Shown: positions 3,276 through 13,555 of the stretch, piece by piece
How positions within the stretch are numbered: position 1 is the stretch's first letter
How the letters are laid out: the number at the start of each line of letters is the position of its first letter
NCBI GenBank assembly: GCA_964636085.1
Contig: CAZWPQ010000010.1
Span: forward strand, 36,151-53,753
Source of the DNA: an uncultured Nitrososphaerota archaeon
GTDB taxonomy: Archaea > Asgardarchaeota > Njordarchaeia > Njordarchaeales > Panguiarchaeaceae
Direction of reading: 5' to 3'
Length of the DNA stretch: 17,603 bases
Program-made: the position numbers and the translations under genes
The notes under the pieces: generated by a model
Told to the model about the DNA's origin: nothing
Databases searched by the model: none
Seen by the model: the letters and a program-made list of their open reading frames with translations, nothing else

Positions 3276-3381
3276 TGGGGGCTTGCATGAAGTTGTAGTC
3301 GAATCAGCTTGCCAGAAACGATGTGTGAGTTTGTTAAAAATATATGATTTTTTAGCGGATTACTATAGTACGATATTGATA

Positions 3382-3435
3382 TCGATGATGATTAAACAGT
3401 CGACTGATCTGTGATGACCGCTGGAACTGCTGAGA
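3382..3435 (+). ncRNA. Archaeal C/D-box sRNA (2'-O-methylation guide)
   Basis: Box C ATGATGA (3385-3391), 12-nt guide TTAAACAGTCGA, box D' CTGA (3404-3407), TCT, box C' GTGATGA (3411-3417), 12-nt guide CCGCTGGAACTG, box D CTGA (3430-3433), and a short TC/GA terminal stem. All four boxes are perfect with canonical spacing, in an intergenic gap. Confidence 0.92.
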
Positions 3436-10895: not shown

Positions 10896-12521
10896 TTATT
10901 TTTTGTTTCTTAGACAGCTCTTCACGAATTCAATGAAGAGTGGGTGGGGGGATAAAGGCCTGGATTTATACTCAGGGTGATATTGTACCCCAATGAAGAA
11001 GGGATGGTCTTTTATTTCGATAGCCGCAACTCTATTCATATCGTCAGTGGCACTAATTATAAGCCCTTTAGTCATCATTTTTTCGACGTAATGTCGTATG
11101 ATATGATATCTGTGTCTAAACCTTTCGCGTGTTTTTGTTGTTCCGTAGATTTTATGTAGTTTTGTATTTGGCACAATATTGATTTCAAGGCCTCCAAGTC
11201 TCATGGTTCCGCCTAGAGTGGCGACATCTTTTTGTTCTGGTAGGAGATCCACTACGGGGTAATCGGTTTTTGGATCTATTTCGGTAGTGTTGGCTGTTTT
11301 CCATCCCATAAATTCTCTAGCGAAAGCGACAACACCAAGTTGTGCTCCAAAGCAGATTCCAAGTAATGGGATTTTGTTATGTAGGGAAAATATTGCCGCC
11401 TGTATCATCCCATCTGTTCCTCTTTCCCCAAATCCTGGGGTTAGGATAATACCATTATAACTCGAAAGTGTTTGAACGTTGATGTTCTCAGAATCAATGA
11501 TTTCTATGGAAGGTTTTATATTTAATTCGGCTGATGCATGTTTTATGGCCTCAATTATGGAGAAATATGTATCCATCATCCTCGTGTATTTTCCAACAAG
11601 TCCAACTCTAATTTTATAAGAAGCATTCTTTAGTCTGGATATGAAGTCTCGCCACTTCTTTAACAAATCTTCGGGCCTTTTCCTGGGCGATAGCCCAAAT
11701 CTCCTGAGTATTATCCTATGAATGCCCTGCTCGTAGAGTAATAATAGTGTCTCGTACGGGGTCTCTAAATTGGGTACCTCAAAGATAGCCTCAGGGGGGA
11801 CATTTGAGTAAAGTGAGAGCTTATTTTTAGCTTGTGGAGATATACCCTCGATCTCAGTTCTTGCAATGATGGAGTCTATTACGAGCCCAGACTCTAAAAG
11901 AAACCTGAAACTTTGTTGGGCTGGTTTTGTCTTATATTCGCCTAAGATCCCAATAAATGGTACCCATACAACATGGATAAGAAGAGTGTCGTTAGGCGAG
12001 AGTTCATTTCTAAGTTGCCTAATTGCCTCAAGGAATATGGCTGCTTCGTAGTCCCCAACTGTTCCACCAACTTCGATTATTGTTATGTCATAATTCTTGG
12101 CAATATCGATTATTCTTTTTTTAATTTCATGCGTAACATGCGGAATTAATTGGACAGTCTTTCCTAAGAATTCTCCCTTTCTCTCCTTTAATATAACTGA
12201 TAGATATATCTGGCCACTTGTAATATTATGTGAAGGATGAAGATCTCTATGTATAAATCTCTCATAGATTCCAAGATCCTGATCAACCTCACAGATTCTG
12301 TATGTGTAGTCATCAACAGGCTTAAATTCCCAAATCTCATCAAGAACGAATACCTCGCCATGTTCATGCGGGTTAAATAAACCAGCATCAATATTGAGAT
12401 AGGGATCAATCTTTGCAATAGTAATATCGAACCCATAGGCTTGAAGTATACCAGCAATGCTACCAGCAATTGTACCTTTGCCTAAACCTGAGAGAGACCC
12501 AGTTATAAAAATTATTTTCAA
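10896..12521 (-). CDS. pyrG: CTP synthase
   Basis: ITG.LSGLGKG, KIDPYLNIDAG, HGEVFV, EVGGTVGD, KTKP.Q, GICFG (catalytic Cys), ERFRHRY and QYHPE motifs. TTG 12521 with a GGTGA SD is preferred over the track's GTG 12530. Confidence 0.97.
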   Translation of the reverse strand: MKIIFITGSLSGLGKGTIAGSIAGILQAYGFDITIAKIDPYLNIDAGLFNPHEHGEVFVLDEIWEFKPVDDYTYRICEVDQDLGIYERFIHRDLHPSHNITSGQIYLSVILKERKGEFLGKTVQLIPHVTHEIKKRIIDIAKNYDITIIEVGGTVGDYEAAIFLEAIRQLRNELSPNDTLLIHVVWVPFIGILGEYKTKPAQQSFRFLLESGLVIDSIIARTEIEGISPQAKNKLSLYSNVPPEAIFEVPNLETPYETLLLLYEQGIHRIILRRFGLSPRKRPEDLLKKWRDFISRLKNASYKIRVGLVGKYTRMMDTYFSIIEAIKHASAELNIKPSIEIIDSENINVQTLSSYNGIILTPGFGERGTDGMIQAAIFSLHNKIPLLGICFGAQLGVVAFAREFMGWKTANTTEIDPKTDYPVVDLLPEQKDVATLGGTMRLGGLEINIVPNTKLHKIYGTTKTRERFRHRYHIIRHYVEKMMTKGLIISATDDMNRVAAIEIKDHPFFIGVQYHPEYKSRPLSPHPLFIEFVKSCLRNKK

Positions 12522-12567
12522 ACAAATCACCTAAATAAAACAATCTAGGATAACTTCGGGATCCAAA

Positions 12568-12793
12568 ATACTAAGGGCCCCAGAACCATACCTACCCTCC
12601 CCTTCAACCAGTCTCCCCCTAGAGCACCGTGAGCTCGCTTAGCGCCGCTCCCTTCCGGGCCCGCACGCGTTCGCGCGCCCATAAATGGGCGGTCGGCACC
12701 CACCGTCCTTCGACGGTGAGAGCCATGACAACCCACGGCCCCTAGGGACTGGTCTTCATTGGGTCGAGTAGGCGGTTCTGGGGCTTTCCTCAT
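12568..12793 (-). other. Bulge-helix-bulge splice motif formed by the SRP RNA flanks
   Basis: The 5' strand AU-GAGG-AAA-GCCCCAGAACC (12793-12774) pairs with the 3' strand GGUUCUGGGGC-CCUU-AGU-AU (12587-12568). This gives a 4-bp central helix with a 3-nt bulge on the 3' side of each strand. Confidence 0.65.
12571..12785 (-). ncRNA. ffs: Signal recognition particle (7S) RNA, ~215 nt, atypical
   Basis: GC-rich island in AT-rich DNA. The minus strand has helix 8 GGGCCC-GGAA-GGGAGC with a GAAC/UAA internal loop (12636-12675) and helix 6 CUCACCGUC-GAAG-GACGGUGGG with a GNAR tetraloop (12692-12729). A long helix 5 is formed by CCGUGGGUU/AGCUCACGG, GACCAGUC/GACUGGUU, GCCUACUC/GGGUAGGU and GCCCCAGAACC/GGUUCUGGGGC. 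Confidence 0.88.
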
Positions 12794-12887
12794 AAATATG
12801 CTTACTGATGAAAAAAGTATAATGCTATTTATTTTTTATTTGTTGTTCATTGATATTTTTGGATATTATTGTCTAGTGGGGAGTTCT

Positions 12888-13406
12888 ATGCCTACATACG
12901 ACGATCATGAGATTAAGGCAAGATTGAGTAAGGCATATAAACCAGTCTTTGATATACTTAAGAAGCTCGTGATGTCTGCTGAGGAAATCTTAACTGAATT
13001 TAAGTCTGATGGCCTAGACAGAGAAACTGTCTCTACATTTATGGCAGACCTATCAGAATTGGAGGGGATATATGATGAGTTCTTAGTTACTGTAGAGGAG
13101 GTATCTCAAGGATTGGAATACGAATCACGAATAGCCAAGGAGATCTTGAATTCCTTTAGAAAGTTGAAGGAGATGTTTGGCGATATAAGGATTCAGGCAG
13201 AAAATTTGTTGGGATTCATAAAACCGGGCCTGGTTCAGCCTAATGAGTTACTTAGTAGCATAATAGTACAACTTAATGACTTAATAAAGAAGCTCAGAAC
13301 AATCATAAGTGAAGAACTAAAGTATAATGTCGAAAGACTGCTTGAAGAACAGAGACAAGTAGAACATCTATTCCCAGACGAGAGAGCCTTAGAGGATCAA
13401 CTCTGA
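12888..13406 (+). CDS. Hypothetical all-alpha acidic protein (172 aa)
   Basis: ATG 12888 is preceded by a GGGGAG SD. The protein is made of amphipathic helices and is followed by a T-tract. The track's start at 12759 runs into the SRP RNA and is unlikely. Confidence 0.7.
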   Translation: MPTYDDHEIKARLSKAYKPVFDILKKLVMSAEEILTEFKSDGLDRETVSTFMADLSELEGIYDEFLVTVEEVSQGLEYESRIAKEILNSFRKLKEMFGDIRIQAENLLGFIKPGLVQPNELLSSIIVQLNDLIKKLRTIISEELKYNVERLLEEQRQVEHLFPDERALEDQL

Positions 13407-13470: not shown

Positions 13471-13555
13471 GCGCCGGTAGTCTAGCGGTAGGATGCCAGC
13501 CTGCCAAGGCATTCGTAGAAAGCTGGTGACGCGGGTTCGAGTCCCGCCCGGCGCA
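13471..13555 (+). tRNA. tRNA-Gly(GCC) with a 14-nt intron at 37/38 (13507-13520); CCA not encoded
   Basis: Acceptor stem GCGCCGG/CCGGCGC plus discriminator A; anticodon stem CCAGC/GCTGG; anticodon GCC at 13503-13505; T-arm GCGGG-TTCGAGT-CCCGC. The intron AGGCATTCGTAGAA forms a BHB (CUGC/GUAG helix, bulges CAA and AAA). The gene is followed by TCA. Confidence 0.96.

Follow-up and report, generated by a model that had tools for sequence, protein, structure and literature searches.

Reviews credit all archaeal signal recognition particle (SRP) RNAs with an Alu domain and describe no more than its erosion, in a few lineages (PMC2905702). A GC-rich segment in the genome of an uncultured Njord-group Asgard archaeon raises the question of whether this domain can be lost altogether. 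The segment lies within a stretch of 17,603 nucleotides, the whole of which was analysed and is called the window below. Positions are those of the window unless a genome or locus is named. The source genome is a metagenome-assembled genome (MAG) of 2.41 Mb in 102 contigs, with 83% completeness and 39% G+C. Our reading, to which we give a probability of roughly 80%, is that the locus is the single, functional SRP RNA gene of this hyperthermophilic archaeon, and that the Alu half of the RNA has been lost.

The G+C content is 64.5% at 12572-12791; the 200-nt flanks have 34.5% and 31.5%, and the window as a whole has 40.5%. This agrees with a first-pass annotation made from the sequence alone, which had described a GC-rich segment of about 215 nt between AT-rich flanks at 12571-12785. 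These coordinates cover the core of the gene; the strand had to be corrected to minus, and the 5' end moved by a few bases to 12791. A listing of GC-rich islands in the source genome, with its 39% G+C, contained 500 islands at the threshold used, too many to be informative. The minus-strand fold has a free energy of -135.7 kcal/mol (z = -8.8 against shuffles).

A scan of the window against Rfam at gathering thresholds returned only a tRNA and a C/D-box sRNA. It missed the locus, and was set aside as a detector of SRP RNA. A permissive scan of 12450-12900 recovered a match to Archaea_SRP (RF01857) at 12569-12794 (-), with 66 bits and an E-value of 1e-14. The gathering score of this family is 96.5 bits; the match falls under it because it lacks the Alu columns and proximal helix 5. 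The SRP RNAs of the congeners, at 64.7-75.8 bits, likewise score under the gathering score. With RF01857 and E-values up to 10, the source genome contained a single SRP RNA match. Positions 12300-12765 are covered without differences by a contig from an independent DNA sequencing run; the DNA contigs that match the locus are fragmentary and agree with it. An open reading frame of 82 amino acids at 12545-12793 (-) spans the gene and is an artefact of the GC-rich RNA, not a protein.

The 5' end of the RNA was placed at 12791 and the 3' end at 12573/12572, using covariation and per-sequence pairing in eight to ten orthologues. The features of the locus are as follows.

12573-12791, minus strand: SRP RNA gene without Alu domain, 219 nt (Archaea_SRP match; ends set by covariation), followed by an invariant A at 12572
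12788-12791, minus strand: 5' strand of the terminal helix, GAGG, which pairs with CCUU at 12573-12576 and covaries between species
12785-12787, minus strand: 3-nt bulge AAA in the 5' strand, present in all orthologues (AGA in one)
12730-12784, minus strand: helix 5, 5' strand, with a conserved internal loop, AAUGAA, at 12755-12760 (RNAalifold; model columns 87-141)
12692-12729, minus strand: helix 6 with its GNAR loop (GAAG), the expected SRP19 site (model alignment and RNAalifold)
12676-12691, minus strand: extra hairpin of 5-6 bp between helices 6 and 8, which covaries
12636-12675, minus strand: helix 8 with the GGAA tetraloop at 12653-12656 and internal loops, the expected site of the SRP54 M domain (model alignment and RNAalifold)
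12577-12635, minus strand: helix 5, 3' strand (RNAalifold)
12818-12823, minus strand: TATA-like A/T run, candidate promoter, 27-32 nt upstream of the first paired base
10896-12530, minus strand: pyrG (CTP synthase), the next gene downstream and not part of the RNA (Pfam CTP_synth_N and GATase)

Runs of at least six A/T lie about 21-35 nt upstream of the first paired base in four of eight species, and a similar TATA-like element, placed by eye, may be present in two more. The remaining genes of the window are ordinary archaeal housekeeping genes: SAM synthetase, GatD, FttA, A-type ATPase subunit B, a Top6B-like gene, and uS15. The C/D-box sRNA at 3381-3435 (+) matched Rfam sR20 with 47.4 bits, against a gathering score of 44.

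The short form was found in all five genomes of genus g1, that is, in the source genome and the genomes of four other species. Together with a metagenome scan, these genomes provided ten distinct orthologous sequences of 211-225 nt from independent assemblies; the matches from a genus-specific motif search came from Guaymas Basin MAGs labelled Candidatus Njordarchaeota and from one hot-spring MAG labelled Crenarchaeota. In the alignment of the ten sequences the mean column identity is 77%. The RNAalifold consensus contains 81 pairs, 31 of them with double compensatory changes; a pair was counted as compensatory when at least one sequence had both sides changed with the pairing kept. All ten share one fold, in which a 4-bp helix at the termini and a 3-nt bulge lead into the long helix 5, followed by helix 6, the additional hairpin, and helix 8, and in each a single unbranched rod runs from the termini to the junction of helices 5, 6, and 8. 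The unbranched rod that had been noticed in one sequence is thus a feature of the whole set.

At the ends of the rod, the structure is identical in all eight species checked: a 4-bp helix, a bulge in the 5' strand, helix 5, and an invariant A 3' of it. The terminal helix itself varies in sequence (GAGG/CCUU, GGAG/CUCU, GGGG/CCCC, and AAGG/CCUU in a per-sequence check of these species). The terminal pairing extends to the last base, and the AT-rich flanks bear no relation to one another between species. At the other end of the rod, the S-domain columns of RF01857 (helices 6 and 8 and distal helix 5) were aligned at high posterior probability, the GGAA loop of helix 8 and the loops flanking it included, and the pairs of helix 8 are conserved or covary. 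The hairpin of helix 6 is capped by GAAG, in agreement with the GNAR consensus, and its pairs covary as well. The conserved fold, the orthologues, and the independent DNA run together indicate that the short gene is neither an assembly artefact nor a pseudogene.

The extra hairpin shows GC, AU, and GU pairs at alignment columns 117/135. Positioned between helices 6 and 8, it creates a four-way junction. Full-length RNAs of two other families of the order, f2 and f3, are predicted to form it too, which makes it a trait of the order as a whole, without a link to the loss of the Alu domain. The asymmetric loop of helix 8 (12642-12668 (-), columns 149-165 of alignment A4) varies within the genus on its 5' side. 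On its 3' side, the base after AGC is an A in six sequences, a G in three, and a U in one; the G found in the window is a species-level variant and no fixed rewrite.

What the RNA has lost was read from the covariance-model alignment. In the window, model positions 10-64 of RF01857 (helices 2-4) are empty, and more columns of proximal helix 5 are deleted. These Alu columns had been singled out as the ones to inspect, and they are indeed deleted; the matches in three congeners are local and cover model positions 82/89 to 286/292 only. None of the elements of the RF01857 Alu domain (helices 2, 3, and 4, the loop-loop pairing, and the UGUNR turn) was found. Helix 1 is absent too: the paired ends align to columns 82-84/293-295 and not to the columns of helix 1. 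The observation that there is no room for helices 3 and 4 holds, in that the covariance model places neither within or beside the locus, and the flanks are AT-rich and unrelated.

The terminal pairing is a continuation of helix 5 past its conserved A-rich loop. The AAA bulge aligns to Rfam columns 85-86 and is homologous to the A-rich asymmetric loop that full-length relatives have in helix 5; thus, the short form corresponds to a helix 5 cut 4 bp beyond this loop. Judged from the alignment, the whole Alu domain has been lost, with helices 1-4 and the UGUNR turn, and each strand of helix 5 has lost about 20 proximal positions. The idea of a minimal S domain with a long helix 5 and no Alu domain, proposed in the first-pass annotation, is borne out by the model alignment and the comparative fold in the five genomes and ten sequences. 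The mature RNA, its size and ends as predicted from the sequences, probably has no Alu domain.

In families f2 and f3, the SRP RNAs measure 332-350 nt, exceed the gathering score, and possess helices 1-4 and the connecting turn. Full-length SRP RNAs with helices 1-4 were also present in 21 other Asgard genomes inspected. Many of the full-length Asgard RNAs carry an extra stable hairpin between Alu helices 3 and 4 that is absent from the Rfam model (within the 5' 100 nt at loci L010, L011, L013, L016, L007, L008, L009, L012, and L015). When every local or short match among 151 Asgard genomes was inspected, only the five genomes of genus g1 and one other genome, G007, had truly short SRP RNAs. 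The matches in G138, G097, and G068 turned out to be cut by contig ends. The SRP RNAs of families f12 and f24 were rejected as short forms, having divergent yet recognisable Alu domains just upstream of the local match. The loss in genus g1 thus very likely postdates the split of its family from the sister families that keep the full Alu domain.

G007 is the sole genome of family f4; it is genome-reduced, with a size of 0.9 Mb. Its SRP RNA is GC-rich, about 163 nt long (L022:1554-1716 (+)), and folds into helix 5, helix 6, and helix 8; it ends in a clamp of 4 bp that directly follows the conserved GAUGA/UGA loop in helix 5.

Phylogenies were calculated under LG+G4 to place this second short form relative to the family of genus g1 (f1). 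The single-gene FttA tree has f4 outside f1 and f3; in the AU test, a clade of f1 and f4 was not rejected (p = 0.11). The tree from concatenated FttA, SAM synthetase, and CTP synthase (1571 columns) had the topology (f4,(f2,f1,f3)) with support values of 100/99, and with this three-gene alignment the AU test rejected the f1 and f4 clade (p = 0.008). The branch leading to G007 is long (1.18), which makes the inference of two losses model-dependent. Genome-reduced Panguiarchaeaceae have been published as sister to Njordarchaeaceae (PMC12411855). As the Alu domain is retained in f2 and f3, and helix 5 breaks off at a different point in each of the two short forms, the evidence favours two independent losses. 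Judged from these sequences, the deeper truncation in f4, to about 163 nt, most likely was an independent event. In the FttA comparison, the FttA/aCPSF1 homologue of G030 (L101, G030:C16:10192-13266) lies in a 1042-aa open reading frame, and about 1 kb separates the two parts of its match, which suggests an intein or some other insertion.

The alternative that survives best concerns the processing of the ends. The tRNA-splicing endonuclease would excise the short RNA at a relaxed bulge-helix-bulge (BHB) formed by its ends, and RtcB would close the ring; in the circular form, helix 5 would be capped by a loop of about 7 nt derived from the 3' strand of the terminal helix. This is compatible with the Alu-less reading, to which it would add without replacing it, and we consider it possible though rather unlikely. 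The geometry was checked against the tRNA-Gly(GCC) of the window, in which each strand runs through a helix, the central 4 bp, a 3-nt bulge, and a helix; of the ends of the short RNA, the 5' half fits this order, with the 4-bp helix, the bulge, and the inner helix, and only this half of the motif is conserved. The central 4-bp helix is present and covaries in eight of eight species. The 3-nt bulge in the 5' strand follows between central and inner helix in all orthologues (AAA, or AGA in one species), with the invariant A after the 3' strand. The genome encodes RtcB and two separate EndA-family genes, consistent with the heterotetrameric type of endonuclease with relaxed specificity. There is also a precedent in Thermoproteus, where the BHB is described as requiring "at least one" bulge (PMC4731332).

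Against excision, the second 3-nt bulge with its outer helix is missing: after a 3-nt gap, the pairing between leader and trailer is 0-5 bp with a median of 1, and it is unconserved, which rules out a canonical BHB. The AAA bulge is the ancestral loop of helix 5, found in full-length relatives as well, and needs no role in processing. The position of the TATA-like runs, about 22-35 nt upstream in most species, suggests that transcription starts at the terminal helix without a leader. In G007, the 4-bp clamp adjoins a two-sided internal loop, and there is no one-sided bulge. The combined proposal of two independent, complete Alu losses in one order and a rod of about 220 nt closed by endonuclease and RtcB, which would amount to a minimal circular SRP RNA, is a shade more doubtful than circularisation by itself.

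The tRNA-Gly(GCC) used for the comparison (13471-13555 (+)) is interrupted at the canonical position 37/38 by an intron of about 14-16 nt, which forms a textbook bulge-helix-bulge; a near-identical tRNA-Gly in the congener G001 (L027:2616-2686) is intronless. The two EndA-family genes are located at G000:C10:12357-12608 and G000:C1:165730-165990 (95.6 and 43 bits, respectively). Their presence as two separate genes suggests the heterotetrameric, relaxed-specificity type in this Asgard lineage.

The RNA could also be no independent gene at all but a fragment cut from the leader at the 5' end of the pyrG mRNA. In the window, only about 40-60 nt separate the end of the RNA from pyrG, which lies downstream on the same strand, its 3' end is followed by just four Ts, and the arrangement is shared with G001 and G004 (three of the five genomes of the genus). 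In G002 and G003, however, the RNA is not upstream of pyrG, owing to intervening genes or a different orientation; it is located elsewhere in G007 and G009, and candidate promoters lie directly upstream of the RNA. The synteny rules out processing from the pyrG leader as a general rule, and we consider this origin improbable. Transcription may read through into pyrG in some species. The Alu-less RNA as a gene of its own remains the preferred reading.

The Alu domain might instead be encoded at a separate locus, be it in the assembled or the unassembled part of the genome, and join the S-domain RNA in trans or by trans-splicing; the first-pass annotation had offered a separately encoded Alu part as one option. 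The MAG is just 83% complete (75-83% across the MAGs of the genus), and Alu-specific searches have limited sensitivity. A search with RF01857 found no second SRP fragment at E-values up to 10 in the source genome and up to 1 in the congeners. In another Asgard genome, G026, the same search did recover an isolated Alu fragment (20 bits) from the end of a contig. Searching the genome with Bacteria_large_SRP (RF01854) produced a match to helix 8 only and no Alu piece, and Metazoa_SRP (RF00017) produced none. A custom covariance model (R1) was built from ten Asgard Alu domains; it is weak, as true Alu domains of family f3 score just 13-21 bits. Its three matches in the genus (E-values 1.3-8) were dismissed as noise, being located inside long open reading frames with 48-55% G+C and mutually unrelated. 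An nhmmer profile of the Alu domains of the order had no match under an E-value of 24; in a leave-one-out control, this approach detected the within-family Alu domains and missed a cross-family one.

Thus, none of the scans gave a credible candidate for an Alu part elsewhere in the source genome or its congeners, and neither RF01857 nor the custom model found one in any of the five genomes of the genus; the confidence in the absence of a separate piece is moderate, not conclusive. The pairing of the ends is the stronger argument against an Alu domain in trans. The two termini are base-paired down to the last nucleotide, which leaves no free strand at which a second RNA could dock and complete helix 5. 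A contribution in trans is very unlikely, and the Alu-less RNA is again preferred. The reading of the locus as a pseudogene, the decaying remains of a full-length SRP RNA gene, which the score under the Rfam threshold might suggest, is hardly credible, given that it is the sole SRP RNA match in each genome, all S-domain motifs are intact, 31 pairs are compensated at 77% mean column identity over ten sequences, and SRP19 and SRP54 are retained.

The genome of the source organism encodes SRP19 (PF01922, 77.5 bits) and the M domain of SRP54 (PF02978, 57.3 bits, in a frame of 452 aa). In the particle that we envisage, SRP19 would bind helices 6 and 8 and SRP54 would bind helix 8, and the particle would deliver ribosome-nascent-chain complexes to FtsY at the membrane. 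No arm of the RNA would reach the factor-binding site of the ribosome, and hence there would be no Alu-mediated pause in elongation. With nothing reaching this site in the absence of the Alu arm, the particle would act like the Alu-less bacterial 4.5S particle. That elongation does not pause is suggested by analogy to bacterial and eukaryotic work. To our knowledge, a function of the archaeal Alu domain, which is protein-free, has never been established experimentally. For archaeal SRP RNAs whose small domain is eroded, Zwieb and Bhuiyan (2010, PMC2905702) suggested a bacterial-like mode of action. Both short forms retain helix 5 at least as far as the conserved asymmetric loop, which suggests that this loop marks the minimal functional unit.

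The short RNA shares the loops of helix 5, the GNAR loop of helix 6, the GGAA loop of helix 8, and the partners SRP19 and SRP54 with the canonical archaeal SRP (7S) RNA of RF01857. It differs in length, with 219 nt compared to about 300-350 nt, and in having no helices 1-4, no UGUNR turn, and about 20 fewer positions in each strand of helix 5. The bacterial 4.5S RNA (RF00169) is likewise an Alu-less, hairpin-like rod whose ends are paired at the far end of helix 5, and it is likely a functional analogue in targeting without an Alu-mediated pause. The 4.5S RNA is about 110 nt long, has no helix 6, and needs no SRP19. The short RNA, in contrast, retains helix 6, the extra hairpin, and a longer helix 5, and it is archaeal by sequence.

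Two groups of archaeal RNAs are closer comparisons. The SRP RNAs of Desulfurococcales and Nitrosopumilus likewise have a degenerated Alu domain (PMC2905702); in these RNAs, the pairs of helices 1 and 3 are missing, whereas the residues remain and may form an extended helix 4 (PMC2905702). In the short RNA, the Alu domain is gone entirely, together with part of helix 5. In Thermoproteus tenax and T. uzoniensis, which are hyperthermophiles as well, the SRP RNA is permuted and circular (Plagens et al. 2015, PMC4731332), and it also has non-canonical ends. Common to both systems are ends beside a 4-bp helix and a 3-nt bulge, and genes for RtcB and an endonuclease of the relaxed type. The Thermoproteus gene, however, is permuted and keeps its Alu domain (only helix 1 is missing), a leader of 23 nt forms a BHB with the trailer, and the circularity is experimental (PMC4731332). 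In contrast, the gene for the short RNA is collinear and Alu-less and has no conserved leader/trailer helix.

Within the full-text literature, outside which most subscription journals lie, we found no description of a complete loss of the archaeal Alu domain or of the structure of Asgard SRP RNAs. An archaeal SRP RNA cut down to the S domain and helix 5 throughout a genus, with a probable second, independent loss in a sister family, is probably new. Since the short genes score under the Rfam gathering score, they are missed by annotation pipelines that rely on this threshold.

Asgard archaea are the closest relatives of eukaryotes, and the eukaryotic SRP needs its Alu domain for elongation arrest. 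Variation of the Alu domain within Asgard archaea therefore bears on the evolution of elongation arrest. A lineage from which the domain has been cleanly removed, while sister families retain it, amounts to a natural deletion experiment, and it identifies a minimal archaeal SRP RNA consisting of the S domain and helix 5 out to the conserved loops. Hyperthermophily and genome reduction have been described for Njordarchaeia (PMC12411855), and the finding suggests that the Alu domain is dispensable under some conditions, namely these two. If both the two losses and the circular form were true, the archaeal Alu domain would be shown to be dispensable.
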